In this document: positions 42,064-63,414 of the stretch, in pieces
Layout of the letters: each line of letters opens with the position of its first letter
Position numbering within the stretch: the first letter of the stretch is position 1
DNA from: a virus
Strand: one strand, 5' to 3'
Virus record (IMG/VR): IMGVR_UViG_3300021963_000035
Coordinates: 84,576 to 148,575 of that record
Length of the DNA: 64,000 bases
Made by a program: the position numbers and the translations under genes
The notes under the pieces: generated by a model
Seen by the model: the letters and a program-made list of their open reading frames with translations, nothing else
The model's database searches: none
What the model was told of the DNA's origin: nothing

Positions 42064-42160
42064 AATTATCTTTTTACCTTTTATACGAATAAGAGAAAAA
42101 TATCTGTATAAGAAGAGATTGAAAGAACTACGTAACAGGGATCCGTTTATCTACAAATGA
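42047..42160 (+). CDS. 37-aa basic peptide coupled to carbamoyltransferase (not in ORF track)
   Basis: MRKLIRIIFLPFIRIREKYLYKKRLKELRNRDPFIYK; stop overlaps next ATG (ATGA). Confidence 0.6.
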   Translation: MRKLIRIIFLPFIRIREKYLYKKRLKELRNRDPFIYK

Positions 42161-43614
42161 TTACTTGGGGAATATCTGCTAACAGCCACGACGCTGCACT
42201 AACCGTTTTCTTAGATGAAAAGATAGCCTTTGCTAGCCATAGTGAACGATTTAGTAAAATAAAAAATGATCCGGATCTAGATCGAGATCTAATAAATTAT
42301 GCGCTGCGATGGGGCGAACCTCAACGAATCTACTGGTACGAAAAACCTTTTAAAAAATCACTAAGGCAATTAATTGCAGGTCAGGGATTCAATTTTGCTG
42401 AAAATAATATTAAAGAATACTTAAGAAAATTTAATATTAAGCAACCGATCACTTATGTTGATCATCATTTAAGTCACGCCGCCGGAGGATACTATACCAG
42501 CGGATGGGACAGTGCTGCAATATTAGTCATTGATGCTATTGGAGAATTTACCACAGCAAGTATGTGGAGAGGACAAGGCAGAGATATAAAACCCTTGTGG
42601 AAAATGAAATATCCTAACAGCATTGGTCTGTTTTATTCCGCAGTTACAAAAGCTGTGGGATTAAAACCAAATCAGGACGAATACATATTAATGGGTATGG
42701 CAGCATACGGTGACCCTTACAAATTCTATGATCATTTCTTTGACAACTACATAAATCTAGATGATCTAACATTTAAGCAGAACTTCCATAGAGGTATCAG
42801 TGATCTCGAAAATTTAATCAAGACAGAAAAAGATAAATTTGATATCGCAGCCACAGCACAATTATTTTATGAAGATATGTTTGATAATCTTTTGTTAGAT
42901 CTGTATATCGAAACGAAAGAACGCAAACTGATTCTTAGCGGAGGCTGTGCATTAAATTGTTCTGCAAATAAACTAGCATTTCAGTGGTTTGATGATGTAT
43001 GGATAATGCCTAACCCGGGAGATGCTGGTAGTAGTTTAGGCTGTGTATTAGCACATAACAAATGGCACACCTATTGGCCCGGACCGTATTTAGGTTACAA
43101 CATACCCGGAGAGTATCCGGTGCAATCTATAATTAAAGAATTAGAAAACAACAAAATATGCGCAGTGGCTAGTGGCCCTGCAGAGTTTGGTCCAAGAGCA
43201 TTGGGCAATCGCAGTCTGTTAGCTGATCCGAGAGATCCCGGCATCAAAGATCGTGTTAATGATATCAAACAACGACAAAAGTTTAGACCATTTGCTCCTG
43301 TAATAATGGAACACTTAGCTGAGAAGTTTTTTGATATGCCTGCTAAAAGTACACCTTACATGCAGTTCACGGCTGTGTGTCGTGAGCCTAGCAAATATCC
43401 TAGTATCATCCACCAGGATGGTACTAGTCGTGTTCAAACAGTTAACAGAGATCAACATCCTGGATTATACGCTGTACTAGAACATATGTGGCATAAACAC
43501 GGTTGTGCAATGTTATTGAACACTAGTTTAAATGTCAAAGATCAACCAATGCTCAACGACTTAGTCGATGCCAAGAATTGGACCAGCCAATACGGTTTAC
43601 CTGTTATATCATAA
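42157..43614 (+). CDS. O-carbamoyltransferase (NodU/CmcH family)
   Basis: HDAA, ERFS..K, HH.SHAA, GGCALN, GDAG, EFGPRALGNRS, RPFAP, LNTS.N. Confidence 0.93.
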   Translation: MITWGISANSHDAALTVFLDEKIAFASHSERFSKIKNDPDLDRDLINYALRWGEPQRIYWYEKPFKKSLRQLIAGQGFNFAENNIKEYLRKFNIKQPITYVDHHLSHAAGGYYTSGWDSAAILVIDAIGEFTTASMWRGQGRDIKPLWKMKYPNSIGLFYSAVTKAVGLKPNQDEYILMGMAAYGDPYKFYDHFFDNYINLDDLTFKQNFHRGISDLENLIKTEKDKFDIAATAQLFYEDMFDNLLLDLYIETKERKLILSGGCALNCSANKLAFQWFDDVWIMPNPGDAGSSLGCVLAHNKWHTYWPGPYLGYNIPGEYPVQSIIKELENNKICAVASGPAEFGPRALGNRSLLADPRDPGIKDRVNDIKQRQKFRPFAPVIMEHLAEKFFDMPAKSTPYMQFTAVCREPSKYPSIIHQDGTSRVQTVNRDQHPGLYAVLEHMWHKHGCAMLLNTSLNVKDQPMLNDLVDAKNWTSQYGLPVIS

Positions 43615-49912: not shown

Positions 49913-49947
49913 TTCGGTGGTGAGAAAGGCGACAGCACAGGGGCTGT

Positions 49948-49982
49948 AAAAAAACACAGTGTTGCAGTAGCGCAACACTGTG
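49948..49982 (-). terminator. Intrinsic terminator built without GG/CC
   Basis: CACAGTGTTGC-N6-GCAACACTGTG followed by T7 on minus strand. Confidence 0.75.
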
Positions 49983-50006
49983 CAAAAATGCAGTGTTGTT
50001 AAAACA

Positions 50007-50588
50007 CTACACAGCAGTAATAGTTACAATGTTGTTAAGCGCAATAGTGCGGCAAATAGCATTGTGTGTAATGTTGTGTGTAACATTGTGCGTTTGTGTG
50101 TTGCGATTAAACAACTGTTGTGCTTGCGCAGGCGTTAAGTATTGTGCAACGTCTTGCTTAGTTGCAAGTGTGTTGTTAATAAAATACATTGTGCTAGTTT
50201 GTGCGTTGTTAAAAAGCGCATACAAGTATTGTGCTAGCGTTTGCTTGTGTTGCACTACGCTATAGCAGTTAGTATGCTCAAAATAGTTTTCCTGCGCTGT
50301 AAACGCTTGCACATTGTTAGCGTTGTTAGTGGGGATAGCACTAGCAGTTTGTTTAACTAGCGTTGTGTATTGTGCGTTACTGTTAGCGTATAGCGTTACT
50401 GTTGCTTGTGTAACTTTTTTAATAGTAACGTCTTTGCATTTTGCGCTTGTTTTTACATTTGTAACATATGTAATTTGTGCGTTTTGCTGTTGTGCGTTGT
50501 TTAACACATTTGCTACGCATAGCGCAGTGATGTGTTGCTGTTGTGCGTGTTGTTGCAGTGCTGTTTGTGCTGTGTGTAGTGTTAGCAT
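50007..50588 (-). CDS. Early protein of extreme composition (Q/T/N/A/H-rich; no G/W, only 2 D, 2 E, 2 P)
   Basis: Own promoter (TTGCAC..TGCTATACT), AAGGA RBS, terminator. Confidence 0.75.
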   Translation of the reverse strand: MLTLHTAQTALQQHAQQQHITALCVANVLNNAQQQNAQITYVTNVKTSAKCKDVTIKKVTQATVTLYANSNAQYTTLVKQTASAIPTNNANNVQAFTAQENYFEHTNCYSVVQHKQTLAQYLYALFNNAQTSTMYFINNTLATKQDVAQYLTPAQAQQLFNRNTQTHNVTHNITHNAICRTIALNNIVTITAV

Positions 50589-50971
50589 TTTGCTAGTCCT
50601 TTTTTTTGTTGCTACACAATGTTGTGTAGTGCAGTTAGTATAGCACCGTTTTGGCTGTGTGCAACAAATAATTTAATAACATATTTTCTCAAGGGTCTTT
50701 CTCGGATACGCCTACCCCGACGCAGCAGCTGAACATGTGTCCACGGGGTTAGGTGCTGTCCCGGCGCATGCAGCTCACATGTGCTGTCGGGGTTGCATGC
50801 CTTTTGTCCCTGTGCAGTGATGTTGTGCAGCAGGATCGCCCTGGGGCATGCGTCGTGCTGGCGTCCATCGAGGATCCTTGCGGGGAGGATAAAAAAAGCC
50901 CGCCGGGTCTATTCACCGGACGGGCCAAAGGGGGAGGAGTAAGCCCCCGAGCACACTACGCAAAAATCAAA

Positions 50972-51157
50972 TCATCTGCTGTCCAGCCATTCATCGTGGC
51001 GGATCATGACGGTCCCCACCCAGGCTATCAGAAGACCGCCTAGCGATATCAGCACGGCTCCTAGTAGCATTGTGTCGTTGAGGCTGTTCTCTACGCCCCC
51101 GACCCCGAACATGGTTACGATTAATCCTACGATGAAAACAAACATACCTCGCTTCAT
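50972..51157 (-). CDS. Small two-TM membrane protein
   Basis: Coupled to upstream gene; hydrophobic. Confidence 0.65.
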   Translation of the reverse strand: MKRGMFVFIVGLIVTMFGVGGVENSLNDTMLLGAVLISLGGLLIAWVGTVMIRHDEWLDSR

Positions 51158-51402
51158 ACCGCCTCCACTGCTTGAGTAAAATAATCTGTGTTGAGATAGT
51201 CGTAGACTTCCAGGAGGCTGTCATCGTCTAACTCTCGGATACGCTGCTTGATGGTTTCCAGGTCCCAGCCATCCTCATCGAGATTGATAACCCCGAGGTC
51301 GAAGTCGAGGGCATACTGGAGAGCATCCTCGTTAGCATCGTCCCAGTAGAGCTCTAGGATCTCTACCACGGTGTCCTGTATCCTGGTCTTGATGTCGCTC
51401 AT
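51154..51402 (-). CDS. Highly acidic early protein
   Basis: AGGAG RBS; GGTTGACA..TAAACT promoter. Confidence 0.75.
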   Translation of the reverse strand: MSDIKTRIQDTVVEILELYWDDANEDALQYALDFDLGVINLDEDGWDLETIKQRIRELDDDSLLEVYDYLNTDYFTQAVEAV

Positions 51403-51539
51403 CTTGTGCTCCTTTAATTAAACAGTATCTAGAGTTTAACAGATTTTTGGATCCTGTCAACCAAAATAGGCCGCTGTGTAGCGGGGTCTATGGTGGTGTT
51501 GCACTAGCGCAACAGTGTGCGCTAGTGCTGTGTTACAGT

Positions 51540-51872
51540 TTAAGTAAACAAACGCAATACAATGCTGTTTTGTGTTACTACAATTTGCGCATTGTGTTTT
51601 TTAGCAATTTGCGTTAATGCTAAACAAACGCTTGTTGTGTTGTAAATTGTAACAGTTGCAAAGCGTTTACGAAAATTAGTAAAAATACGCTTTGTAAAAT
51701 ATTGTGCTTGCGCTGCTAATGCTAATGCGCTTAACTGTGCGTGTTGCTGTGCAGTATACAAATTTGCATACTGCGCATTTTGCTGTTTAGCGTGTAGTAT
51801 AGTGCGCAATTTACTGCGTGTGTTTTGTGTGTGCTTTGTGTGCTGCACTTGCACTTGTGTTTGTGTTTGCAT
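51540..51872 (-). CDS. Basic early protein with no D, E, G, P or W
   Basis: Extended -10 TGTTATAGT upstream; downstream hairpin; 110-aa open frame. Confidence 0.65.
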   Translation of the reverse strand: MQTQTQVQVQHTKHTQNTRSKLRTILHAKQQNAQYANLYTAQQHAQLSALALAAQAQYFTKRIFTNFRKRFATVTIYNTTSVCLALTQIAKKHNAQIVVTQNSIVLRLFT

Positions 51873-51976
51873 AGTGTGTGCTGTTTAAGTTGCTGCATAA
51901 AATTATGCAGTAACTACACTATAACACAAATTTAAAAAACTTTAGCGTTTTTAGAAACTTATTTTCCGTAGGGTCT

Positions 51977-52180
51977 TTATTGCCACAACTGCTGCTGCCG
52001 CTGCCAGCATGAGGGATTGCTCTGGGGTGTGCCCTTGCAGTTGAGATTCCTGGATTGACGAGGGGGGACCTGTTCAAACAGTGCGTGGCCAGGCTCCGGA
52101 TCCATGTGGAACCTCTGAGGGGCGCAGCCGGCAAGGATCCCGACGAGGACCCCGATGGTGACCATGGATGAAATCTTCAT
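51977..52180 (-). CDS. Putative lipoprotein
   Basis: Signal peptide with LAGC lipobox. Confidence 0.65.
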   Translation of the reverse strand: MKISSMVTIGVLVGILAGCAPQRFHMDPEPGHALFEQVPPRQSRNLNCKGTPQSNPSCWQRQQQLWQ

Positions 52181-52401
52181 GAAGGTGTGTGGGGTTGGTT
52201 GATGACCGCCAGGCCACGTGCCCTGGCATCCGCTTTAAGATATCTCATTAGTGCTCTCTGGATTCTCTCTTCGACGAAAGCCGCTTCCGCTGCTGTGAGC
52301 TCGGTCTCGGGAAGTTCGTCGTTAAGGACTTTAAGGACCACAGCCTGGCGATCAGCTGCCAGTCCCTGTGGTGTGAAGGTACACTTGCGCCATGTAGTCA
52401 T
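52177..52401 (-). CDS. Hypothetical protein
   Basis: Coupled ORF. Confidence 0.6.
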   Translation of the reverse strand: MTTWRKCTFTPQGLAADRQAVVLKVLNDELPETELTAAEAAFVEERIQRALMRYLKADARARGLAVINQPHTPS

Positions 52402-52748
52402 GTTTTCATATACTCCGCGCCCAACTCCTGTGGAATCGTCACGTTGGTTCCGGTGGGGAATTTCTGTGCTATCAGCTGGATCAGTTGCTTGGGATCATTG
52501 TGTTGCCCCAGGAAGCGATCACTAGGATGTTCGTAGGCGTAAAGGGTGTCACCGTGCCGCTCGATCTTGACCGTGGCCTGTGCTTCAGGTTCGTCTTGTG
52601 ATTCGATGGCTGCTCTCAGCTTCTGCTCTAATTCCCGGGGATCGATTCCCGCGGCACGCAGCGCGGACTTCATCATAGATCTAATGACGATACCGTGTAC
52701 GGCCCAACCTAACCAGAATGCGAAAGCGAAAAGGATGATCAGTTCCAT
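52398..52748 (-). CDS. Membrane-anchored hypothetical protein
   Basis: TAAATA-N5-ATG; N-terminal TM; LYAY....FL.Q. Confidence 0.7.
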   Translation of the reverse strand: MELIILFAFAFWLGWAVHGIVIRSMMKSALRAAGIDPRELEQKLRAAIESQDEPEAQATVKIERHGDTLYAYEHPSDRFLGQHNDPKQLIQLIAQKFPTGTNVTIPQELGAEYMKT

Positions 52749-52849
52749 AATTGTATTTACTCCAGGTTGCTGCTGCCTTGCATGTAGCGGGGTCTATGTT
52801 CATAGTATAGCACACGACCTGCTCACCTGCAAGTCGTGTGCTGTTGTGT

Positions 52850-53170
52850 TTAAGCCACAGCGTATTGCCGCAATGCTTGCTCAACTGCTATTACTGCTAG
52901 TTTGCTTCGGCCGCCAACGTGCCAGTCTGTAATGTGCTGTTTAGCAAGCCCTGCTTCGCCGCAGTAATTTTTGCCATCTTTGTAATTGTAGATAGTTGCA
53001 ACAACGCCGTTGCTAAATTGCAACTCCCATTCTGCGTCCGTCTTGTAAGCGTCCCCCTCGCTGTGCTCTGGGCCAAACACGTCTACAAGTGTTGCGTAAT
53101 CTACATTAACATAACCCTGCAAGCTAGTGCCGTTTACTGCTTGCCATTTTGCTTGTTTAAAAGTTAGCAT
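52850..53170 (-). CDS. Early hypothetical protein
   Basis: AGGAGCG RBS; TTGACA..TATTAT promoter; L...FG.P, ATIY.YK, WHVGG motif. Confidence 0.8.
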   Translation of the reverse strand: MLTFKQAKWQAVNGTSLQGYVNVDYATLVDVFGPEHSEGDAYKTDAEWELQFSNGVVATIYNYKDGKNYCGEAGLAKQHITDWHVGGRSKLAVIAVEQALRQYAVA

Positions 53171-53235
53171 TTTGCGCTCCTGTTGTTCACTGCGTTATTG
53201 CAGTGTGTTTATAATAGCACCTGTTGTCCAAAATG

Positions 53236-53382
53236 TCAACCACGTAGACCCTGTAGATAACTCTCACGCAGGAGTCGACGCTGTTCTTTGTAGCGTAGCT
53301 GTCTGGCCAAAAAGCCCGGAGATTCAAACCAATCTTGTAGGCAATGACGGGTTTGTCGGCGACGCCTTGCTCTCATCTTCAT
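53236..53382 (-). CDS. 48-aa Arg-rich peptide (not in ORF track)
   Basis: AGGAGCGAAC RBS before ATG; MKMRARRRRQ... Confidence 0.55.
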   Translation of the reverse strand: MKMRARRRRQTRHCLQDWFESPGFLARQLRYKEQRRLLRESYLQGLRG

Positions 53383-53413
53383 GTTCGCTCCTTGTCTTTA
53401 ACTGTCAACCAAA

Positions 53414-53626
53414 TTAATATGCAGCTTCGTCTGGTGCACCCCAGGCGCACTCACGTTCCTGAGCGCGGATCATCTCCCACTGATCACGGATCACAAGCTT
53501 GGCCGCAGCCACGTCCCCGTTGCATTCTTCGAGGATGTCGTTATAATCTGCTGCGTCCCAGCACTCTACGATCCAATGACCGCCTGCTTCGTAGTTGTCC
53601 AGGGCATACTGATAAAGTTCGTTCAT
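53414..53626 (-). CDS. Acidic early hypothetical protein
   Basis: AGGAGCG RBS before MNELYQ; promoter upstream. Confidence 0.7.
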   Translation of the reverse strand: MNELYQYALDNYEAGGHWIVECWDAADYNDILEECNGDVAAAKLVIRDQWEMIRAQERECAWGAPDEAAY

Positions 53627-53682
53627 TTTGCGCTCCTTGTTGTGGAGTTCATATAATAACACATTTTGGGCTCAGTGCAACC

Positions 53683-53767
53683 AAAAAAAAAGGATAACCC
53701 TACGTGCTGTAAGGTTATCCTTGGAACTGCTACAGCTTCCCGGGAGCGAATCGGTTTAGGCCATAGC
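53683..53767 (-). ncRNA. Candidate 3'-UTR anti-Shine-Dalgarno hairpin plus terminator (copy 1)
   Basis: CCGATTCGCTCCCGGG identical to copy 2; outer stem GCUAUGGC/GCUGUAGC. Confidence 0.5.
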
Positions 53768-54049
53768 TGCTTCTTTGGCTGCTGCCTTAGAAGTCTTTGC
53801 GGGAGCGTACTTGCTCTCAACGTGTTCAATCGCGGACTGAACAGCGGCATTTCCCTGACCGTAGCCGATGCTGCGGAGATGGGCCACGATTTCAGCCTTG
53901 GTCATCTCGTGTGGGAGATTGATCAGGTCCACATCGTTGTGGCCGTTCTTTGCCAGGATCTTGATTCGCATCTGATCGTTGGCGAAGCGCAGCTTGGTCT
54001 TGCCATTAAGGGTTGAAACGCCTGCTACTGAAAAACGCTTGTCTGTCAT
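53756..54049 (-). CDS. Hypothetical protein
   Basis: GAGG RBS; TTGACA promoter; VAGVS..NG..K.RFAND. Confidence 0.75.
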   Translation of the reverse strand: MTDKRFSVAGVSTLNGKTKLRFANDQMRIKILAKNGHNDVDLINLPHEMTKAEIVAHLRSIGYGQGNAAVQSAIEHVESKYAPAKTSKAAAKEAAMA

Positions 54050-54145
54050 TTGAGTTACCTCTCTGTGTGTTTAAAAAAAGCACCAAACCATTTGGTACGT
54101 TATTATGTTAACACCGGTTTGGTTTGGTGTCAACCGTTTTTTTGC

Positions 54146-54337
54146 CTAATTTGGCAAAACTTGTATCGTAACGCTTTGGGTCTCTCCCAATGCGTTCACG
54201 AAAGCATCATCGTATACTAGTTCCTTGAAAGTCAGATCCAGCATCTCTTCAACCATCGCGAGATCAGCAGATCCATCTGATGCGCATTCGATCGTTAAAC
54301 GGAATTCATATGTTCTCATCGTTGCCAGCTTTCCCAT
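54146..54337 (-). CDS. Hypothetical protein
   Basis: ORF in the minus-strand run. Confidence 0.55.
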   Translation of the reverse strand: MGKLATMRTYEFRLTIECASDGSADLAMVEEMLDLTFKELVYDDAFVNALGETQSVTIQVLPN

Positions 54338-54597
54338 TTAAGAAGATACAGTGCCAATGCTTCTTCAGCCAGATACACACTGCTCTTTTCACTGTCCCAT
54401 GCCCACTTAGGTTGGGTCCCATCGAAGAAGTCAGGACGAGCAAATGCCAGCTCAGCACTGGGTCCAAACTGCATCCACAGCCAGTTACGGCTCTGGATCC
54501 ATTGATTCACCCTCTCGTCTCTACCGTAGAATTCTACCCTATGGCTGAATCTGCCATAGCCATCATATCTCCGGTCTAATTTAATAAGTTTCATCAT
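54316..54597 (-). CDS. Hypothetical protein (small family ending ..LKW)
   Basis: W.W.QFGPS.EL motif; start at MMKLIKL. Confidence 0.6.
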   Translation of the reverse strand: MMKLIKLDRRYDGYGRFSHRVEFYGRDERVNQWIQSRNWLWMQFGPSAELAFARPDFFDGTQPKWAWDSEKSSVYLAEEALALYLLKWESWQR

Positions 54598-54622
54598 ACA
54601 TGCACATGCGTAGTAGCGGGGT

Positions 54623-55282
54623 CTATGAGTTGACTGTGTTATGAGGATCGTATTCCCCAATCAGCCCTACAGACTTACGCTGTTCCGCACCTTCCTTAAC
54701 GAATGCATAGAGTTCTTCCTCCATGCGTTGCTCTTCTTCATACTCAGCGAGATACTCACTGATACCAAACATCTCGTCCAGCTCTTCTGGAAGGATATCA
54801 CGAGCCTCTTCACTGGTCTGCCATTCGGTCCAGCAGTTGTCCTCACCATCCTCATAGACTCCAGCGAAACACATGCCGGGCTCGTAATACATAGCGCGGA
54901 TCTTGTAGCCTTGCTCTTCCATGATGGGATAGATGTTCAAAGGCGGCGACCAGGCAGTATCAAAGTTCAGAACGATATTGTTCTCATCGATACGGCTGTC
55001 TCCTCCACGCTCGCCACAGTCCCACTTGGTTCCCCAGTTGCTGGTCTGCCAGTCATACCAATCCTTAGCGCCAAAATACTTGAGATTCAGTTGCTGTTTG
55101 AACTGATTCAGTTCCTCAGCATAACTGTCTCCCAGATAACCGGCCACGGTCTCGTGCAGTTCCTTAGGGCAAGGTTTGATGTAATCCAACATCCGCCCTT
55201 GTCTGAATGCACGACGTAGACCCGCGATCTTGCGAGGATCTTCGTGGCTGACTTCCAAATGATTGTTGCACCAATTAGGCAT
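54623..55282 (-). CDS. DUF1281/YubB ferredoxin-like family protein
   Basis: MPNWCNN, WYDW...NWGTKW, FDTAWSPP, YYEPGM.F.G. Confidence 0.8.
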   Translation of the reverse strand: MPNWCNNHLEVSHEDPRKIAGLRRAFRQGRMLDYIKPCPKELHETVAGYLGDSYAEELNQFKQQLNLKYFGAKDWYDWQTSNWGTKWDCGERGGDSRIDENNIVLNFDTAWSPPLNIYPIMEEQGYKIRAMYYEPGMCFAGVYEDGEDNCWTEWQTSEEARDILPEELDEMFGISEYLAEYEEEQRMEEELYAFVKEGAEQRKSVGLIGEYDPHNTVNS

Positions 55283-55318
55283 AACTCGCTCCTTTCAAAG
55301 TATGCGTATATTATACGC

Positions 55319-55543
55319 TCATCTTTTCAAAATGTCAACCAATTTCTGGTTCTGCATATCCTGATAGTTGCGAGCCATCAGTTCGTCGAAACGATCGATC
55401 ATGCGATCTTCGATACGACGTGCATTCATGTCAAAGATCTGACCAACCGTCTTAAGGATCTTGTGCTGTGCCATGAGTGTTGTGCCGGGATCCTCAAGCA
55501 CTGCCATGGCCCGTTGAATGTATTCAAACTCTTGAGGTGTCAT
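55319..55543 (-). CDS. Hypothetical protein
   Basis: Coupled ORF. Confidence 0.6.
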   Translation of the reverse strand: MTPQEFEYIQRAMAVLEDPGTTLMAQHKILKTVGQIFDMNARRIEDRMIDRFDELMARNYQDMQNQKLVDILKR

Positions 55544-55971
55544 ACGGGGAGATCTCCCTTGTTGATTCGCCGCAGCAGACAGGTAAGAGTAAAGTCTCGA
55601 TTGACCATGAACTTCTTAGGCCAGTCACGGATCTCCCAATCATCCAAGTTCATGGTCTGGTGACGCTTGACTTTGCCACGAGGACCAACAACCTGGATTT
55701 CCCAAAGTTTGCTGTTTCGGCCAATGCCACCCATCTTGGCCGTCACGACATTGTTCTGATGTTTCACAGTGTAGGTCTTGGTCTTGGGATCGTAGGAATG
55801 TTCATAAGCCATCAACTGATCACTGATGGCCTTCTGTGCATTGCGGATCTGTTGATTGCGTAATCGATTGCCAATGCTGGTCAGATCGTTGTGTGTGAGG
55901 CCGTAGAGTCCTGCCATCATCAGGATCTTCTCTTTGGCTTCCTTCTTGGCCTGTTTCTCTTGCAAGTCCAT
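55540..55971 (-). CDS. Hypothetical protein
   Basis: AAGGAA RBS; promoter upstream. Confidence 0.7.
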   Translation of the reverse strand: MDLQEKQAKKEAKEKILMMAGLYGLTHNDLTSIGNRLRNQQIRNAQKAISDQLMAYEHSYDPKTKTYTVKHQNNVVTAKMGGIGRNSKLWEIQVVGPRGKVKRHQTMNLDDWEIRDWPKKFMVNRDFTLTCLLRRINKGDLPV

Positions 55972-56019
55972 GTCTGTTCCTTTGTGCTAATAATAACAGG
56001 GCCCTAAGGCCCTGTCAAC

Positions 56020-56388
56020 TCAATCAACTACATGCACTTCCTTAAAGCTCTCGTAGCCGTATTTCTTTTCCCACGCGGCAATAAAGTCCCCGTCTACGTC
56101 TAAGCTAACGTAGTTGTCTCCCTGCATGCCCTGCTCGCTGTAGTCTGCTTCCGCAAGGCCCTGTTCTGCGAGGAATGCGTTAAGCTCTACTAAAAAGTTG
56201 CTGTCTGTGTAAATTAGTCCGTCTTCGTTAACGTCCCAATCGTCTGTGTTAAAATACACGCACAGCTCGCCAAAGTCTTTGTCGTCTACAACATAGCCCA
56301 AGTCTATGCCTGTAATACGCACTGCCTTAGACACTTTGCTCCAGTAGCCGTCGCCAGCAGTGTTAAAAGTTGCTCTCACTGTTTGCAT
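56020..56388 (-). CDS. Acidic early protein lacking Pro
   Basis: AGGAGCGAA RBS; own promoter. Confidence 0.8.
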   Translation of the reverse strand: MQTVRATFNTAGDGYWSKVSKAVRITGIDLGYVVDDKDFGELCVYFNTDDWDVNEDGLIYTDSNFLVELNAFLAEQGLAEADYSEQGMQGDNYVSLDVDGDFIAAWEKKYGYESFKEVHVVD

Positions 56389-56455
56389 TGTTTCGCTCCT
56401 GTGTGTTAATGTTCAAATAGTATAACAGGGCCCTAAGGCCCTGTCTACCAAAATA

Positions 56456-56818
56456 TTAAATACCCTGGAACTTTGAAAGGACTTCTTGTGCGCTTTCATC
56501 TAGCATAACTGCGTCCATAGCCTTGCGCTTCTCAATGTCAAGCTCTGCGCGGTATGCTTCCATAGCCAGCTTCTTTGCTTCCATTGCGGGCCAAACTACA
56601 TCTTGCGGGTTGAGGTAAGGACCTGTATAATCTTCCTTTTCCTCTTTAAGTGTGATCTCGCCTGCTTTAATTGCTGCGAACACTTGTCCCCAGGTAGGCT
56701 GTTGAGGACGACCGCTAGGACCAAAAAGTTCTACAGCCTTAGACTGTAGTTTATCTGCAACGATCTCCTCCAAACGGCGGATGAAGTAAGAACGTTGTTC
56801 TGTGGACATTGCTTGCAT
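56456..56818 (-). CDS. Hypothetical protein
   Basis: AGGAGCG RBS; promoter. Confidence 0.75.
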   Translation of the reverse strand: MQAMSTEQRSYFIRRLEEIVADKLQSKAVELFGPSGRPQQPTWGQVFAAIKAGEITLKEEKEDYTGPYLNPQDVVWPAMEAKKLAMEAYRAELDIEKRKAMDAVMLDESAQEVLSKFQGI

Positions 56819-56881
56819 ATTGCGCTCCTAAGTTTCACTGCACATCGCAGTATCATTAGTATAGCACCTGCAGGGTTTGGG

Positions 56882-57157
56882 TCAACCGTTTTTTTCAATA
56901 CCCGACTTAGTTATAGGGTTTCTCTTGCGGGCTTTCTTTCGGGCGGGCCTGCGTTCCTTGAACTCGTTAGCCACATACCACGCGACCAGTTGCCGTTGGA
57001 TCATCGTGACCAGATCGCCGAAGTCATCTGGAACTACAAAACGGACCGGACACTTGCCCCAGGTATTGTGCTTGACGAATTCTGCATAATACCTACGATG
57101 CTGTTTATTGCTAGCATCGAATGCTACAAAAGGGCGGCCGGTCAGTTCTAGTTTCAT
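56882..57157 (-). CDS. Hypothetical protein
   Basis: FD..N..HR..Y..F.....WG.CP.RF motif. Confidence 0.7.
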   Translation of the reverse strand: MKLELTGRPFVAFDASNKQHRRYYAEFVKHNTWGKCPVRFVVPDDFGDLVTMIQRQLVAWYVANEFKERRPARKKARKRNPITKSGIEKNG

Positions 57158-57288
57158 TTTGTGGTTTCTTTAATAACCCCTGTGGCCACAGCGTTGGTTG
57201 TATCAACGGCACGGCCGAATAGTTCTTTGGTCACTGCGGGGTACAGTACGGCCAAAGTTAAGATCACTCCTAAAAGAATTTTGCCCAT
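57154..57288 (-). CDS. 44-aa membrane peptide (not in ORF track)
   Basis: GGAGG RBS; MGKILLGVILTLAVLYP; ATGA overlap. Confidence 0.55.
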   Translation of the reverse strand: MGKILLGVILTLAVLYPAVTKELFGRAVDTTNAVATGVIKETTK

Positions 57289-57289
57289 G

Positions 57290-57667
57290 TTAGGCCTCCT
57301 GTGTGTGTGAGTTAGCGATCGTTAGCAAGAACAATTTACGACCGAGCTTTCGGGCTTCGGACTTAGCTTCATTCAATGCTTCCCATATTATATCATCAAT
57401 CATTCCGTCTGTCAATACATCTTTGGAATCCTCATAGAGCATGCCCCCAAGGTGAGCCTCTCCTAAGACATATTTGTCAAACACGCAACGGACTCTCAAC
57501 ATAAACCAATCGAGATCGCCCCGATCGATCTGTCTGCAGATATCCTCTATATCATACACGGAGTCATCGAATAAGTCTCCGGGGTGTGCATCTTCCCAGC
57601 TCTTTTCCACGACTACAGTGAATCCTTCACGATCGAGTCTTGCCAGTTGTTCCCAATGACGTTGCAT
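57290..57667 (-). CDS. Hypothetical protein
   Basis: AGGAGGAGCGAAC RBS before MQRHWE. Confidence 0.75.
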   Translation of the reverse strand: MQRHWEQLARLDREGFTVVVEKSWEDAHPGDLFDDSVYDIEDICRQIDRGDLDWFMLRVRCVFDKYVLGEAHLGGMLYEDSKDVLTDGMIDDIIWEALNEAKSEARKLGRKLFLLTIANSHTQEA

Positions 57668-57735
57668 GTTCGCTCCTCCTAAGTAACTACAGTATAGCAC
57701 AAAAGAAAACCCTACTCAGTGTAGGGTTTTGTGTC

Positions 57736-57926
57736 TTACTCCTTGAATTCAATGTTAATATCGAGATCACGTGCCAGTGCGTACTGTTCTACGACGTCCA
57801 TGTCGTAGTCATTGAGAACCAGCAGCGTGTTGCCTGTGAACATGACATCTAGGATGTCAAGTCCTTCGAGATCTTCTAGGATCTCGCGTTGTTTAGAAAT
57901 CGTCATCATTGTCATACCAGTGCTCC
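57736..57926 (-). CDS. Acidic hypothetical protein (start uncertain)
   Basis: Overlaps the end of the upstream acidic peptide. Confidence 0.5.
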
Positions 57927-58054
57927 GGAAGGTTTGCATCTTGTTCGTCTGCCCACTCGTTGTATTCCTCCTGGAACTCTGCATATTCCTCAGGAGTCAT
58001 CTCGTAGTGTGCGGGAATGAATTCATCGCTTTGAATGCTATCAAAAGGACCCAT
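57893..58054 (-). CDS. 53-aa extremely acidic peptide (not in ORF track)
   Basis: AGGAGAGCGAA RBS and own promoter; 18 D/E, 0 K/R. Confidence 0.7.
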   Translation of the reverse strand: MGPFDSIQSDEFIPAHYEMTPEEYAEFQEEYNEWADEQDANLPEHWYDNDDDF

Positions 58055-58125
58055 TTCGCTCTCCTAGTTAACTGCACATCGCAGTAATCAAATAATAACA
58101 GGGCCCGAAAGCCCTGTCAACCAAA

Positions 58126-58473
58126 TTAACCCTCCAGCTGGTAGGGTTTATTCCACTGCCCAATGTTCACATCAATGTACCAGCCTACGTCAAAGTAATC
58201 TGTCTGCGCATCGCTGCGATCGTGGTTACCGTCATTCATCGCTGGGATTAGCTCCTTGAGCAGCTCCAGGGGCCGTCCAGTGAAGTGCTCGTGATACCAG
58301 TAAGGGTTGACCTGGATGCGATCGCCTCCGAAGTCGATGGATCCCTTGCTGATGTTCACCACTAGGGTGCTGTGGTTACGTACCGCGATCGAGCCCTTGA
58401 CCCCGTGCTTCTTGAGGATGGTCTTGATCGCAGGTGCCAGCTTGGCTTTCTTTTCCTGACTCATGTATGCCAT
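58126..58473 (-). CDS. Hypothetical protein
   Basis: GGAGA RBS before MAYMSQ; D.SD.QTDYFDVGWY...IG.W.KPY motif. Confidence 0.75.
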   Translation of the reverse strand: MAYMSQEKKAKLAPAIKTILKKHGVKGSIAVRNHSTLVVNISKGSIDFGGDRIQVNPYWYHEHFTGRPLELLKELIPAMNDGNHDRSDAQTDYFDVGWYIDVNIGQWNKPYQLEG

Positions 58474-58492
58474 GATTCTCTCCTGTGTGTGT

Positions 58493-58675
58493 TCAGCTAT
58501 TTTGCAATGCCTGCATCTCTTTGTCAACCAAATAACTGGCCAGGTTCAGGGCCATCATTGCCGCTGTGATGGCCGCTACTCGCTCCCCACCTGTGTGCAG
58601 CATGCACCAGTCGATGAGATCCTGCGAGGTTGTGGGTGTGTCAAACAGACTGCTGTTGGGGATTGGGTTTTGCAT
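58493..58675 (-). CDS. Hypothetical protein
   Basis: AGGAGCGAAC RBS; promoter. Confidence 0.7.
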   Translation of the reverse strand: MQNPIPNSSLFDTPTTSQDLIDWCMLHTGGERVAAITAAMMALNLASYLVDKEMQALQNS

Positions 58676-58844
58676 GGTTCGCTCCTTGCTGTTGATCGTA
58701 CAGCTAGTATAGCACCTATTTTGGCTCCTGCAAGAGAATCTTTTTAAATATTTTGGTTGACAGGCTGTCCAAAAAAACGCATACTGTAGGTATGCGTTCG
58801 ATCGGGCAGTCCGGGGGTGGACGGCGAGGCTGCGCGAGTGGTTC

Positions 58845-59054
58845 TTAAAACCCCGCGGCGGCTTCCAGCTGCTGCTGAAGGGACTTGAGAGAGTCGAAGG
58901 CGGCCTTATAATGCGGGTCGATCTCTTTGTTGGGGGTGAACTGCTGATCTTGTCCTGCTATCATGCCTACGGCCCAGATAGCTCTGTTGACTGCTTCTCT
59001 ACGGACGTTTAGTATTTCTTCTGCTGTTGGCGGTGTTTTATCTTGTGCGGTCAT
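58845..59054 (-). CDS. Hypothetical protein
   Basis: Coupled to upstream methyltransferase-like gene. Confidence 0.55.
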   Translation of the reverse strand: MTAQDKTPPTAEEILNVRREAVNRAIWAVGMIAGQDQQFTPNKEIDPHYKAAFDSLKSLQQQLEAAAGF

Positions 59055-59596
59055 TTGTGTCCAATCTTCATATAACGGGTAAATCCCCATGTAGGGTATT
59101 TAAACGATTTCTCGCCCGTATATAAAGATTGTGACATAGGCCAACAGTTGCTGAACTCGTCTATGCTAGTGTAGCAGTGTACGTGATCATCATGGGGCAT
59201 GTCATTGCCCTGTAGCGCGATCAGTGTCCCGTTGGGAATGCGATCGTACCACTCGCGGGAATCAATGTGTTCCACGCTGGTGTTGATGATTAGATCAGGA
59301 GCAGTAGTCCAGGTCAGCTGATTAACATCTGCGGTTACTGCTGTAAACTCACCCTGCCAGTGCCACAGACGGTTCACGTGTATGGCCGTGCTTTCGCAGC
59401 TAGGATCTATGTCGTAGCTGGTAACATGTTGTATGGGTAGAGTGTTCTGTGTGCGCAACAGCAGGTTGGTAGTACAATACCAGCCCGCAAGTACATGTAT
59501 GCGTAAGGGTTGCAGCGGGGTCAATACCTGTGCTAGTGTCTCCCCGAGCCAGAGCTTGGATCCTATCTGGCCTGAGGAGAAACTATCCCAATTCAC
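59051..59596 (-). CDS. SAM-dependent methyltransferase-like protein
   Basis: VLAGWY, SYDIDP, DLIINTS.EH motifs. Confidence 0.65.
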   Translation of the reverse strand: MNWDSFSSGQIGSKLWLGETLAQVLTPLQPLRIHVLAGWYCTTNLLLRTQNTLPIQHVTSYDIDPSCESTAIHVNRLWHWQGEFTAVTADVNQLTWTTAPDLIINTSVEHIDSREWYDRIPNGTLIALQGNDMPHDDHVHCYTSIDEFSNCWPMSQSLYTGEKSFKYPTWGFTRYMKIGHK

Positions 59597-60825
59597 CCTT
59601 CTAGATTCTCGTAGATAACAGTCTGTCCAAAGGGTGCTTCTGCAGAAGTATTGCCCTTGACGATGAACAGGGTTTCACAGTATTCTTCGTCACCCCAACC
59701 ACCGCAGGGATAACCATCTGTGAACATAATGAACTTCTTCGGACGGAGATCACGCTCTTTCATGTATTCCCAATTGACTTCGAAGTCTGTGCCGCCGCCA
59801 CCTTGAGGTTCATAGCTCAACAATGCGTCACCGTCGTCGTGCGTGAAGCGTTGTGGGTTATAGATGTCTGTGTCAAAGCACCAGATGTCAATAGCGTAGT
59901 CCTGATACTGATCCATGATGCCTTTAACCTCTGACAGGAATGCAGTTGCATCCTCAGTGCCAATTGAACCTGACATATCAATGCCGATGGCCACGTCAAT
60001 GGTCTCATCGTTCTTCATTCCAGGAAGGATAGCGCCACTGTGCCAGCTCTTGCGATTAGGACGGGTGAATGCGTAGTCATTACGCACGATGCTCTGGATG
60101 TTCATCTGCAGAACATCACGCCAGTTCATCTTAGGTTCAGTCAAGTCCTTGAGCAGACGTTGCACACCTGCGGGCACCTTGCCAGCACCTGCGGCCGCGG
60201 CACTCTGGATCATTGCTTCTTTGATCTCGTCACGCAGTTTCTCTGCTTCTTCCTTGGTTAGTGTAGGCTTTGAACTTACACCCTGGCCACTCTTGCCTTG
60301 TTTATCGCCGCCTGCACCAGGACCCTCTTCTTCGTTGATATGTTCATCAAGCAGGTCGCCCAGTTGCTTGAGCAGTTGGCTCATAGGAATCTTCTCAGCC
60401 TGCTCCCAGAGCTTGTCGTAGATCTCTTCCCAGGCCATGCCACGATACTTATTGTCCTGGCAGATCTTGACTTCAGTAATACGCTCGCCGATGCGATCAT
60501 CTACGAGGATCTGATTCACAGCGTAGTCCTGCGCGATGTTGCTGAGCTGACGATCACGGCTACCAACACGGCCAAAGTGATCAAAGACACAATGCAGGAT
60601 CTCGTGTGCGAACAAGAACTCCAGCTTCTTGGTGTTGAGCTTCTTGACAAACTCAGTGTTGTAAAAGAAATTACGCCCGTCAGTTGCGGCAGTAGGGCAC
60701 CAGTCGTCTGCACAACGGATCTGCATACGGGTGGCCATGTTGCCAAAGAAGGGAGCCTTGAGTAGCAGTCCTACACGGGCTGTGATTAACTTTTCTTCGA
60801 TTGCTTTGTCTACGGTAACGGGCAT
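59593..60825 (-). CDS. Metallopeptidase-like (HExxH) plus vWA domain protein (DUF2201-type)
   Basis: TAATDG, HEILH; DMSGS MIDAS, GGGT.F, FTDG. Confidence 0.85.
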   Translation of the reverse strand: MPVTVDKAIEEKLITARVGLLLKAPFFGNMATRMQIRCADDWCPTAATDGRNFFYNTEFVKKLNTKKLEFLFAHEILHCVFDHFGRVGSRDRQLSNIAQDYAVNQILVDDRIGERITEVKICQDNKYRGMAWEEIYDKLWEQAEKIPMSQLLKQLGDLLDEHINEEEGPGAGGDKQGKSGQGVSSKPTLTKEEAEKLRDEIKEAMIQSAAAAGAGKVPAGVQRLLKDLTEPKMNWRDVLQMNIQSIVRNDYAFTRPNRKSWHSGAILPGMKNDETIDVAIGIDMSGSIGTEDATAFLSEVKGIMDQYQDYAIDIWCFDTDIYNPQRFTHDDGDALLSYEPQGGGGTDFEVNWEYMKERDLRPKKFIMFTDGYPCGGWGDEEYCETLFIVKGNTSAEAPFGQTVIYENLEG

Positions 60826-60939
60826 TTCGCTCTCCTAGTTGCTCAGTGTCTTTACAGTATATAGTCGCAGATTAGTTCTGTCAACCAAAAAGGTGGGAGG
60901 GGAACCCTGAGCAAGCCCCCCTCCCTAGCGCACGAGGTC

Positions 60940-62016
60940 TTAGTTCTCCATTGCGCTCAAAACATACTTGCCAAAACGCTTGTGGAACTCGTCAAAGTTC
61001 TTGAGCTTGGTGGCATCCAAGGGCAAGTTGTAATTGGTAAGGGCTGTCTTGGCACCCATAACCACCAACTCAGTTGGGAAGCAGTCCATCATGTAGCGGA
61101 AGAAGTTGTCTGCCTTGGCATCCCAGTCCTTGACCTTCTTGTCTGCCATGTCCTTGAGCTCATAGCAGAGGCTAACGGTCAAAGAATACATCGCCGACAC
61201 TTCTTTGATAGCCAAGTCCTTGACCTTGCCTTCGAGGATGTCGATGGCCTTGGGCAATTTGCCTGCGATCTTGCGGTGTGCCATAAACTTGTGTGCAAGT
61301 CCATCACCCACAGCGCCTGCGATCAGATCAGTCAGCGTGGCTTCGTCAGTGTCATCGTCCTGTAGCAGATCGCTTACGAACGACCAGGAGCGAGGCGTAG
61401 CGAATGCGTGGCTGGCGCTCTTAGGATCAAAGTCATACAAGTCCTGCTTGGCGAAACCAACATAACCAACGACCTGCTCGTGGATACGATTCAGGGTGGC
61501 CCAGTCTTGCCAGTCGTCGAAGTCCACTTTGGCTTCCAAGTGCAGGAATCGATTAGCCAATGGCTTAGGCATACGATAAGTCACGCCACGGTCACCATCG
61601 CGGTTACCAGCGGCAACGATATCTACACCCTTAGGTAGCACATAAGTGCCAACACGACGGTTCAGCACCAACTGGTATGCCGCGGCTTGGACTGCGGGTG
61701 GAGCAGAGTTCAGCTCATCCAGGAAGATGATCGCACGGCTGTCTGGATCCTGCGGCAGTTCTGCGGGAGGAGCCCACACCATGGTCTTGGTGTCTGCGTT
61801 GTAATAAGGGATACCCTTGATGTCGGTGGGTTCCCAAAGGGGTAGTCGAACATCGATCACTTCACGACCGGTGTCATCACCGATCTGCTTGACGATATCA
61901 CTTTTGCCAATGCCTGGAGGGCCCCACAGGAACACAGGACGGCGCTTTTGGATGGCCTTCAGGATAGCCTTCTTGGCTTTCTTAGGACCTACGGTACGGA
62001 TTGATTTGTCGCTCAT
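60940..62016 (-). CDS. MoxR-like AAA+ ATPase
   Basis: GPPGIGKS, IIFLDELN, AAGN, LANRF, TPRSW. Confidence 0.9.
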   Translation of the reverse strand: MSDKSIRTVGPKKAKKAILKAIQKRRPVFLWGPPGIGKSDIVKQIGDDTGREVIDVRLPLWEPTDIKGIPYYNADTKTMVWAPPAELPQDPDSRAIIFLDELNSAPPAVQAAAYQLVLNRRVGTYVLPKGVDIVAAGNRDGDRGVTYRMPKPLANRFLHLEAKVDFDDWQDWATLNRIHEQVVGYVGFAKQDLYDFDPKSASHAFATPRSWSFVSDLLQDDDTDEATLTDLIAGAVGDGLAHKFMAHRKIAGKLPKAIDILEGKVKDLAIKEVSAMYSLTVSLCYELKDMADKKVKDWDAKADNFFRYMMDCFPTELVVMGAKTALTNYNLPLDATKLKNFDEFHKRFGKYVLSAMEN

Positions 62017-62096
62017 TTAAGACCTCGTAAAGTTGAAAAAACATTACCTCGCTCAGTTGCTCAGTGTCTTTATTATGCCGCCAAACAGTGGACCTG

Positions 62097-62720
62097 TCAA
62101 GCGATTTTAACGTAATTTAATTGTGTTGTTTTATCGCCACGCTGGCTCTTGATCTTGCCTTTGACAGTCACAGTGCCCTTGATATCCTTGGGATACCAGA
62201 AGTCCACGTAGCTTTCACCCATGCGAGCGAAGATGCGATACTTCATGTATTGTTCACTGAAGTAGCTGCGGTAGACTTCTGCGCTGCCCACCACACGATC
62301 TCCCTCGTTGCCCGCTAGCTGCTCTGAATCCCGGATGCTGGCATCGATACCCTTCTTGAGGATGTCTCTACGCTGCGCTTCGGGGAGGCTGCTGATGATG
62401 GCAAAGTCCAGCATGTCACGGCCCGTGAACTCGTCCTTCTGCGCGATCTTGAGTACACTGCGCTCGAAGTCGTTGATCTTCCCGCTGAGTTCTTTCAGCA
62501 GCAGACCCTTGAAGTAGTGGCGCACTTCAGCACCCTTTTCTAGATCACCCTCTTGCAGCACAGAGAAATCATTGGCCTGCAGCCAGGACTTGACCATGCT
62601 CTTGTTCTCACGTGTGGCGATCTCGCCCGTGGCCTGATCGTGTACAGGATATTTGTAGTATCCCTGATTGATGCGATCTGCTGCGACCGCCAGTGCCCAA
62701 ACCTGATCTGCTGTAAACAT
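62097..62720 (-). CDS. Hypothetical protein with C-terminal OB-fold-like region
   Basis: AGGAGCG RBS; ends KGKIK...TQLNYVK. Confidence 0.7.
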   Translation of the reverse strand: MFTADQVWALAVAADRINQGYYKYPVHDQATGEIATRENKSMVKSWLQANDFSVLQEGDLEKGAEVRHYFKGLLLKELSGKINDFERSVLKIAQKDEFTGRDMLDFAIISSLPEAQRRDILKKGIDASIRDSEQLAGNEGDRVVGSAEVYRSYFSEQYMKYRIFARMGESYVDFWYPKDIKGTVTVKGKIKSQRGDKTTQLNYVKIA

Positions 62721-62778
62721 GTCACGCTCCTTTGTGTAAGTATCTACACTATAGCATCAGTATTTAGATGCTGCAACC

Positions 62779-62853
62779 AAAAAGAAAGGGCTGCGACGGC
62801 TAAGTGCAGCCCCTTCCAAAACCCGCCCCGGGAGCGAATCGGATTGGATTTTG
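62779..62853 (-). ncRNA. Candidate 3'-UTR anti-Shine-Dalgarno hairpin plus terminator (copy 2)
   Basis: Same 16-mer as copy 1; outer stem CAAAAUCC/GGGUUUUG. Confidence 0.5.
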
Positions 62854-62866
62854 TACGCTAACTCAA

Positions 62867-63112
62867 TTAAGCGAAGATCTGCTTGCGCTCACCGTTAACA
62901 TCGCGAGATGAAACAGTGTACTGGGCGCGGCCTTCAGTGTTCTTGTACTTGCGTACACGAAGTCCTGCTTGGCGGAACTCAGTCATGCGAGCACGAAGGT
63001 TCATGATGCCGTAGGTAGCAGCAGCCTGGGCTGAGCTCAAGCTATTGCCTGTACCGCGAAGATAGCCTTCGAGAAATTCTTTTTGAGTTGTTTTAAGAGT
63101 AGTAAATGCCAT
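62867..63112 (-). CDS. Winged helix-turn-helix DNA-binding protein
   Basis: LS.AQA...YGI.NLRAR..E.R.AG..V. Confidence 0.75.
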   Translation of the reverse strand: MAFTTLKTTQKEFLEGYLRGTGNSLSSAQAAATYGIMNLRARMTEFRQAGLRVRKYKNTEGRAQYTVSSRDVNGERKQIFA

Positions 63113-63204
63113 TTTTAAAGTTTCCTTAATTAACGGCTGTTGTTCAACAGCGTGAGTTAATTATAGTATAACCCTGGGAGCTGGTCAACTCCCAGGTTTA
63201 CCAA

Positions 63205-63414
63205 TCACTTCTTGACCGTGACCTCTGTCTTGAGATAGGTTCCGATGACCACCACGGCTAACCAGGTCCAAAACGTGTACTGGATAGCCAGCACGGGGAA
63301 CAGTGTATTAAGTGCCCAGATAACCACCCAGGGGAACAGGACCACCCAGATCAACAGTGCCAGGATGATACCAATGGCACCCAAACGAGTTAACAGATTA
63401 AACATATCATGCAC
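63205..63414 (-). CDS. Small membrane protein
   Basis: Hydrophobic; IWALNTLFP..AI.Y...TWLA. Confidence 0.7.
   Translation of the reverse strand: MHDMFNLLTRLGAIGIILALLIWVVLFPWVVIWALNTLFPVLAIQYTFWTWLAVVVIGTYLKTEVTVKK

Follow-up and report, generated by a model that had tools for sequence, protein, structure and literature searches.

Exclusion of TC and CC from the message strand of small early genes in an IMG/VR virus record and its relatives

The dinucleotides TC and CC (collectively YC) are almost completely excluded, from promoter to stop codon, from the message strand of gene C, a small minus-strand gene of IMG/VR virus record IMGVR_UViG_3300021963_000035. The window analysed is a 64,000-nucleotide (nt) stretch, positions 84,576 to 148,575, that forms the final part of this 148.6-kb record (G000; CheckV completeness, 42%), and coordinates are window positions unless a locus of a relative is named. 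Gene C is the coding sequence (CDS) at 52850-53170 (-), and gene D, which shows the same exclusion, is the CDS at 56020-56388 (-). For such genes, GA and GG (collectively GR) on the plus strand correspond to YC on the message strand. Forty-three distinct small early genes with coding-strand YC below 2% were found among relatives, and they define the island-gene set used below; in them, the exclusion results from selection on the nucleic acid, is confined to a sharply bounded zone, and varies between close relatives.

Strand-specific depletion in gene C

The plus strand of the 454-nt segment 52793-53246 contains five GR (GA at 52816 and 52991; GG at 52909, 53070, and 53071), one of which lies in the 3′ flank, four in the CDS, and none in the 5′-untranslated region or the promoter. 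Mononucleotide shuffles of the segment gave 38.3 +/- 4.2 GR, the lowest of 20,000 being 23, and 454-nt windows across the whole record contained 43 GR on average, none having fewer than 17 once the four islands described below were excluded. The plus strand carries 50 YC, which equal the 50 GR of the coding strand and represent a normal level; because the opposite strand keeps its GR, the depletion affects one strand only. A previous sequence-only reading of this locus had reported about five GA/GG in some 450 nt of the plus strand, untranslated region and promoter included, with GA/GG retained on the coding strand. Both observations were borne out, the count being exactly five, and the coding strand of the CDS containing 36 GR, compared with 37.5-42.6 expected. 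The inferred gene C transcript (393 nt) contains five YC, and the sole YC of the 3′ flank sits within the stem of the 3′ hairpin.

Codon resampling does not reproduce the deficit. Resampling of synonymous codons from the usage of neighbouring early genes predicted 23.7 +/- 3.8 YC in the CDS, compared with the four observed, and none of 20,000 resampled sequences was as low, so that the codon-shuffle control called for by the sequence-only reading failed to reproduce the depletion. Resampling from genome-wide long-gene usage gave 11.3 expected YC (z = -2.5). Permutation of the synonymous codons of gene C itself gave 5.9 YC (P = 0.10), which is uninformative because that codon set is already devoid of NYC and TCN codons: AGC encodes all four serines and TTT all three phenylalanines, TTC is absent, GCC, ACC, and GTC are used for none of the 13 alanines, six threonines, and 11 valines, respectively, and there is a single proline. 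When 151 open reading frames (ORFs) are ranked by coding-strand YC density, the four island genes occupy the bottom four places (0.3-1.6%), the next-lowest value being 3.7% and the median 7.4%. The ordinary minus-strand early genes at 50700-64000 contain more YC than expected from long-gene codon usage (z = +3 to +9). Early and late (long, mostly structural) genes thus have distinct codon usage, so that the YC-free genes contrast more strongly with their neighbours.

Island genes of relatives and the limits of the protected zone

The record encodes a T4-type terminase, a tail sheath, and a gp15-like protein (domain matches), and the terminase shares ~54% identity with that of Pseudomonas phage PA5oct and ~50% with those of jumbo phages of Sinorhizobium and Agrobacterium. 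Because of these T4-type domains and nearest terminases, the source virus is assigned, on sequence grounds, to the uncultured T4-type jumbo phages, and its host is probably proteobacterial. A megablast search of 50000-56500 against a phage collection gave zero matches, and relatives were collected as IMG/VR homologues confirmed by tblastn (16 loci for gene C; 99 stretches for gene D, of which 80 were kept). Many homologues of genes C and D lie within islands of at most 1.7 kb whose coding strand is YC-poor. The islands are arrays in which four to six small genes usually have a consensus promoter apiece, and YC-free arrays of up to 1.7 kb contain 0-10 YC. The YC density of plus-strand genes at these loci is bimodal, with a main peak at ~8% and a separate group below 2% made up of the 43 genes. 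The complete relatives, G001 and G002, have a normal overall composition. An apparent island in G002 (3085-3344) and a GR-poor stretch in L013 proved to be AT-rich non-coding DNA devoid of YC-free genes.

Only TC and CC are depleted in the island genes, with odds ratios of 0.13 and 0.10, compared with 0.89 and 0.85 in other genes; AC and GC increase, also in absolute terms, and the C content holds at 18-21%. TT and CT are mildly enriched (1.39 and 1.23 vs 1.04 and 1.08 in the others). Codons ending in C after a purine (GAC, AAC, AGC, and GGC) are commoner, while GCC, ACC, ATC, GTC, and TTC have almost disappeared and are mostly replaced by A-ending synonyms, GCA rising from 36% to 62% of alanine codons and GCT falling from 30% to 22%. 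This replacement of NYC mainly by NYA, together with the falling share of GCT, rules out C-to-T hypermutation. The proteins are remodelled as well, with proline at 0.3%, compared with 3.4%, and 95% of serines encoded by AGY. YC is lost 8- to 11-fold in each of the three codon phases, and codon junctions contain 31 YC, compared with 249 expected; a cause at the level of tRNAs or codons is ruled out, since the three phases and the junctions are equally depleted. Because resampling fails to reproduce the exclusion, the junctions are purged, and the proteins are remodelled, the exclusion is attributed to selection on the nucleic acid. A near-absolute purge that is paid for in amino acids argues for a large penalty per site, and since selection maintains the exclusion in relatives, a factor in the infected cell reads exactly the words TC and CC.

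The YC-free state was gained and lost repeatedly among close relatives. The YC density of gene D homologues varies continuously from 0 to 10%, with 21 of 59 below 2% and 25 of 59 at 4% or above; gene C homologues range from 0.8 to 7.8%, and the gene D homologue of the cultured Xanthomonas phage BUDD is undepleted (10.8%). When YC below 2% is treated as a state and mapped onto a maximum-likelihood tree of gene D, at least 12 changes are needed, seven of which are forced by well-supported branches. At 45-75% protein identity, members of one family are depleted in certain phages and of normal composition in others, and therefore the bias is not imposed by the protein. The four island proteins of the record gave nothing significant in scans against Pfam and PHROG, and none of the 139 homologues of the gene C protein contains a Pfam domain. 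Confident models were predicted for the proteins of genes C and D (predicted local distance difference test scores, pLDDT, of 93 and 90). A profile search of solved structures gave no match for protein C, and the viral structure models that matched it were all uncharacterised; Foldseek and VIA returned nothing beyond an unnamed mitoribosomal protein (Z 8.9) and alpha/beta domains of a generic kind. For protein D, the best Z was 4.1, Foldseek gave no match, and the Atlas provided only a DUF4313 lead (score 0.88). These searches thus produced no structural or family match that points to a function for either protein.

The limits of the zone were mapped at both ends. The onset is the -35 hexamer: the 40 nt that precede it have normal YC, whereas the 17-nt promoter spacer is free of YC in 18 of the 20 distinct promoters of first or solo island genes, compared with 25% of 254 non-island promoters (P = 1e-8). 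Within a single cassette type, the difference persists (14/14 island vs 27/51 other promoters; P = 0.001). An A/T-tract element just 3′ of the -35 hexamer reads TTTGG in 14 island promoters and CCAAA in one, compared with 61 and 41 in the others. In ~41 of the 43 genes, the zone begins at the promoter or directly after another island gene. The end is exactly the stop codon. In 32 distinct last or solo island genes, YC remains at 0.2-1.4% per 20-nt bin over the final 120 nt of the CDS, and rises from 0.4% in the last 40 nt to 6.7% in the first 20 nt past the stop. The YCs past the stop lie mostly within terminator stems, often as a “TAA CCC” that opens the stem; YC is excluded throughout the leader and ORF and tolerated outside them. 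Residual YCs are spread evenly along the genes with no 3′ enrichment, and are more often followed by T. A conserved small membrane-protein gene that directly follows or overlaps the gene D homologue (Table 1) has 2.8-5.8% YC and does not belong to the protected set, though it is co-transcribed.

Candidate readers of the two words

A per-site attack on YC in the message is the mechanism that we prefer, tentatively and with more doubt than confidence. A factor in the infected cell would cut or block RNA at each single-stranded YC; it might be an effector resembling an endoribonuclease, either part of a host defence or part of a shut-off operated by the phage itself. Attack at a single YC in the leader or ORF would ruin the message, and the few genes needed while the factor is active would have been rewritten without YC. 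YCs past the stop codon and in hairpin stems would be tolerated. The RNA target, the site-by-site action, and the nature of the factor are what we infer here. This mechanism agrees with the absolute purge, with a zone limited to the ORF, with the tolerance of YC in stems, and with the patchy distribution; the patchiness in turn suits a variable agent, for instance a defence or accessory system. The predicted pairing probability of residual YCs is 0.72, compared with 0.66 for randomly introduced YCs (P = 0.003); simulated YCs were used because a first version of the comparison was confounded by partner abundance, and the effect, which is small, provides weak evidence for an RNA-level reader. 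Messages that lack ACA are immune in MazF-expressing cells, a system that resembles the present one in the complete absence of a short motif across the ORF, in the per-site penalty, and in the privileged set of messages. It differs in that no cognate nuclease is known for the present case, the word here is a degenerate dinucleotide, the genes are natural early phage genes, and the exclusion reaches into the promoter spacer. Sequence-specific interferases are documented with motifs down to two letters, an archaeal MazF cutting at U|GN (PMC13107127).

Several observations weigh against an attack of this kind. Structure searches with proteins C and D gave no match to a nuclease or inhibitor fold and supplied no candidate enzyme. 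The co-transcribed membrane-protein gene downstream is unprotected: at L001 4703-4927 it overlaps the gene D homologue, shares its transcript, and has 4.4% YC, and cleavage there would deprive the protected ORF of its 3′ hairpin. The promoter spacer is free of YC although it lies outside the gene's own transcript, which a purely RNA-level model accommodates only by invoking inheritance of the cassette or a conserved subclass of promoters. YC abounds in most other genes of the phage, among them neighbours that have strong sigma-70 promoters, so that the factor would have to act only during a limited period or under a limited condition. Message-strand GR is also missing from islands A and B (below), which attack at YC leaves unexplained. 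We know of no YC-specific bacterial or phage ribonuclease; a search for the RegB family was uninformative, control genomes being unmatched as well. More generally, it is possible, though we would not call it likely, that these jumbo phages run a privileged class of expression, in which a factor made by the phage or the host disables, early in infection, every message containing YC, or every template containing GR, and leaves expressible only a few cassettes that lack those words from promoter to stop. Such a class would be a natural counterpart of engineered “single-protein production”, and the rapid gain and loss of the YC-free state would track an arms race with that factor.

Evasion of Rho, which we consider rather unlikely as the explanation, supposes that a YC-free message cannot load Rho and escapes premature termination where translation trails transcription. 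Apart from Rho, no cellular factor is well established as a reader of precisely UC and CC (PMC12360218, PMC13323073); the primary binding sites of Rho read 5′-YC on nascent RNA, as “a series of up to six CC or UC dinucleotides” (PMC13323073), and avoidance of Rho is a known influence on the composition of coding strands (Dierksheide et al. 2026, PMC13323073). As in messages that avoid Rho utilization (rut) sites, UC and CC are the words concerned, on the RNA and on the same strand, and composition would shield the gene from a trans-acting factor; the number of YCs is accordingly low (5 YC per 393 nt in gene C; odds ratios of 0.10-0.13 in the 43 genes). The depleted strand is the message, purines make up 59% of messages C and D, in which G exceeds C, and the layout is polar, beginning at the promoter and leaving downstream cistrons unprotected. 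The nearest terminases belong to phages of Pseudomonas, Sinorhizobium, and Agrobacterium, and hosts of these types have Rho. However, Rho loads over tens of nucleotides and acts downstream, so that YC in the final ~100 nt before an intrinsic terminator should be harmless, whereas no 3′ relaxation is seen before the stop codon. The near-total exclusion and loss of proline, in a few genes with remodelled proteins, go far beyond the modest purine bias that Rho is known to impose genome-wide (PMC13323073). Islands A and B have messages rich in C and poor in G, a composition usually linked to Rho targets, the exclusion is patchy among close relatives and absent from the Xanthomonas phage homologue though Rho is widespread in such hosts, and the depletion of the promoter spacer is left unexplained. 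The boundaries, the spacer result, the lability, and the negative search for deazaguanine genes (below) weaken a Rho-only explanation without establishing an alternative. Since template GR and message YC are the same letters, readers of DNA and of RNA are inseparable by sequence, and the opposite placement of the reader must also be considered: a marked or damaged G in 5′-GR-3′ of the template (a phage or host base modification, an adduct, or a nick) would prevent host RNA polymerase from binding or passing, and genes that have to be transcribed from such DNA would keep their template clear of GR. This block, which we judge unlikely, fits the boundaries best, from the -35 hexamer to exactly the stop codon; it also agrees with the polar, promoter-proximal layout and, as a block at each site, with the near-absolute exclusion. 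A GR-like specificity has precedent in phage DNA chemistry, DpdA inserting preQ0 at GA and GGC in phage CAjan (PMC7544227) and at GA in Pseudomonas phage iggy (PMC10484667). The target of these enzymes, a G followed by a purine, matches the template form of the depletion, but no motif-free genes are reported for these phages (none in PMC7544227), and no DpdA match was found here. DpdA/TGT (PF01702) was searched in G000, in the complete G001 (355 kb, with a YC-free gene D) and G002, and in G003, G004, and G006-G010, a set that includes six island-bearing fragments, and gave no match, while controls for the search matched in 14 of 14 genomes. QueC (PF06508) gave no match in G000, G003, G006, G007, and G008, all of them fragments. 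Deazaguanine-modified phages are, moreover, transcribed normally. Neighbouring early genes with consensus sigma-70 promoters (12/12 matches at 55338-55310) and YC in excess would be unreadable, a strand asymmetry within a double-stranded promoter spacer is difficult to explain sterically and may reflect a conserved promoter subclass, and a DNA model does not predict that residual YCs favour RNA helices. The sequence-only reading had proposed that a modified G stalls host RNA polymerase, which the failure to find DpdA or QueC and the good promoters of GR-rich neighbours speak against. The depletion itself, its restriction to one strand, its origin in selection, and its extent over promoter, leader, and CDS survive from that proposal, whereas the modified G is unsupported, and the mRNA-level YC target that it named as its alternative is at least as likely as the template version.

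Attack on the non-template DNA strand is very improbable. A single-strand-specific cytosine deaminase or nuclease that prefers TC and CC would act on the coding strand exposed during heavy early transcription, and selection would remove its targets; APOBEC-type deaminases of single-stranded DNA classically act in the contexts TC and CC, the strand depleted here is the non-template one, and island genes show some enrichment of TT and CT. Harm would be just as great, however, from damage at other places in the genome, which makes gene-specific avoidance hard to explain, the spacer is depleted though it is not unpaired, C is maintained while AC and GC rise, and GCC, ACC, and GTC gave way mainly to GCA, ACA, and GTA rather than to the products of C-to-T change. 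In animal viruses, APOBEC3 footprints are moderate, genome-wide depletions of TC and CC that arise by C-to-T mutation; they share the dinucleotide contexts and strand asymmetry with the islands, and differ from the gene-specific effect and mostly A-ending substitutions seen here. That the exclusion has no function, being a by-product of protein composition, codon usage, recent transfer from an odd donor, or chance, is scarcely credible and is already contradicted by the controls. Part of the gene C deficit does reflect amino-acid choice, as the modest deviation under genome-wide resampling indicates, and the promoter and leader cassettes common to island genes are not independent observations. 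On the other side, resampling from local usage never reached the observed value, junctions and non-coding parts are depleted, members of the same families can be depleted or normal, and no donor with a genome-wide bias was seen, G001 and G002 being normal in composition. DarT2, whose motif is TNTC, is ruled out, CC being as strongly depleted as TC; DarT1 has no defined motif. Avoidance of CRISPR protospacer-adjacent motifs was rejected because cutting anywhere kills the phage, and the same applies to McrBC, which reads R-mC, while RC is enriched rather than avoided in the islands. The remaining probability falls to something not yet thought of.

Avoidance of short motifs to escape trans-acting factors is known from restriction sites, from ACA-less messages, and from the purine bias driven by Rho. 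Our literature search found no report of YC-free phage genes, nor of a ban on a degenerate dinucleotide that covers a whole unit and costs amino acids. What is new here is where exactly the zone begins and ends, the depletion of the promoter spacer, the repeated gain and loss seen on the tree, and the search for deazaguanine genes, which was negative. If Rho were the reader, the islands would be the most extreme natural Rho-proof coding, and would offer a design rule for polarity-resistant genes. If the reader were a nuclease or a DNA mark, they would be the footprint of an effector with two-letter specificity and would flag genes that act while it is active, likely counter-defence or take-over genes. 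The sharp limits, from the -35 hexamer to the stop codon, make the question approachable by simple recoding.

Cassette architecture and sister islands

The segment 52812-53239 (-) is a self-contained early expression cassette, the elements of which are listed in Table 1 together with those of the sister islands and of two gene families in relatives. The weak candidate promoter that overlaps the 3′ hairpin would serve the next gene, which is not depleted. Promoter-early stem-loop (PeSL) cassettes are known in T4-type phages, and in the parts of the PeSL papers that were searched (PMC2839356, PMC4122927) their architecture and mobility are described, dinucleotide exclusion being absent from that text. 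Here, too, small early ORFs occupy a variable region in which a stem-loop overlaps a sigma-70 early promoter, and the gene order among relatives is shuffled, as in the PeSLs of T4-type phages. Hairpin-promoter composites were noted at 56445-56419 and, by eye only, at 52840-52804, and relatives show the same architecture. The early promoters at 56445-56419 and 56018-55990 sit inside hairpins whose arms flank the -35 hexamer and spacer (CAGGGCC-TTAG-GGCCCTG), and hairpin-embedded early promoters of the window and relatives have a common conserved leader, aacacttagcaacaaagga. They are PeSL-like promoter-terminator composites that probably mediate the shuffling of cassettes.

Table 1. Positions of elements in the gene C unit and sister islands (window coordinates) and of two gene families in relatives (locus coordinates)
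Feature	Position	Strand	Remarks
Sigma-70-type promoter, gene C	53211-53239	-	TTGACA, 17-nt spacer, TATTAT; TG before -10; 11/12 consensus matches
Promoter spacer ttttggacaacaggtgc	within 53211-53239	-	zero message-strand YC
Inferred 5′ leader	53171-53204	-	zero plus-strand GR; start inferred from -10 position
Leader stem-loop CACTGC/GCAGTG	53188-53205	-	
Shine-Dalgarno AGGAG	53177-53181	-	
Gene C CDS	52850-53170	-	106 aa; 4 coding-strand YC
3′ hairpin CACACGAC/GTCGTGTG	52812-52840	-	begins 10 nt past stop codon
Weak candidate promoter TTGCAG-17-TATACT	52832-52804	-	overlaps 3′ hairpin; read by eye, not in promoter scan
Island D	56020-56447	-	plus-strand GR depletion only (one strand)
Island D promoter TAGACA-17-TATACT	56447-56419	-	followed by leader, then 122-aa ORF
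Island B	51488-51964	-	GR and YC both depleted, i.e. both strands
Island A	49943-50652	-	both strands depleted; ORF 50007-50588 (193 aa)
Island A intrinsic terminator	49954-49983	-	followed by T-run
Membrane-protein gene	L001 4703-4927		
Membrane-protein gene	L021 3807-4052		
Membrane-protein gene	L041 5357-5593		
Membrane-protein gene	L092 5329-5553		
Array-first family	L021 2357-2590		
Array-first family	L092 3787-4011		
Array-first family	L067 3967-4218		
Array-first family	L041 1775-2047		

Islands A, B, C (the gene C unit), and D are the only four in the 148-kb record. The island D ORF (56020-56388, 122 aa) contains six YC, compared with 27.1 expected, and the island B ORF (51540-51872, 110 aa) has one YC and no GR in its CDS. 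The messages of islands C and D consist of 59% purines, with G above C, and those of islands A and B are A/C-rich (C 23-25%, G 15%; 24.7% and 14.8%, respectively, in island A); the difference of C minus G is +0.10 in island A, +0.07 in B, -0.06 in C, and -0.09 in D. The 193-aa protein of island A and the 110-aa protein of island B contain almost no D, E, G, P, and W. A small family (MFTNCIA.../MQTNCTLYAKL...), typically encoded by the first gene of the YC-free arrays of relatives, is likewise depleted on both strands, with 0-3% YC and 3-5% GR, resembling islands A and B. The loss of message-strand GR from islands A and B and from this array-first family is explained by none of the models considered above.

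The sequence GGGTCTWT occurs on the plus strand at 49907, 50693, 51484, 51971, and 52790, and inverted at 53246. Its counterpart in relatives forms both arms of intrinsic terminators (AGACCC-loop-GGGTCT, then a T-run), and most copies in the window are unpaired half-sites at island borders. Elsewhere in the window, a NodU/CmcH-type carbamoyltransferase is encoded at 42157-43614 (+) (Pfam E-values of 2.5e-48 and 1.6e-43), adjoining the replicative helicase gene; its substrate may be a glycan, a nucleotide, or DNA.

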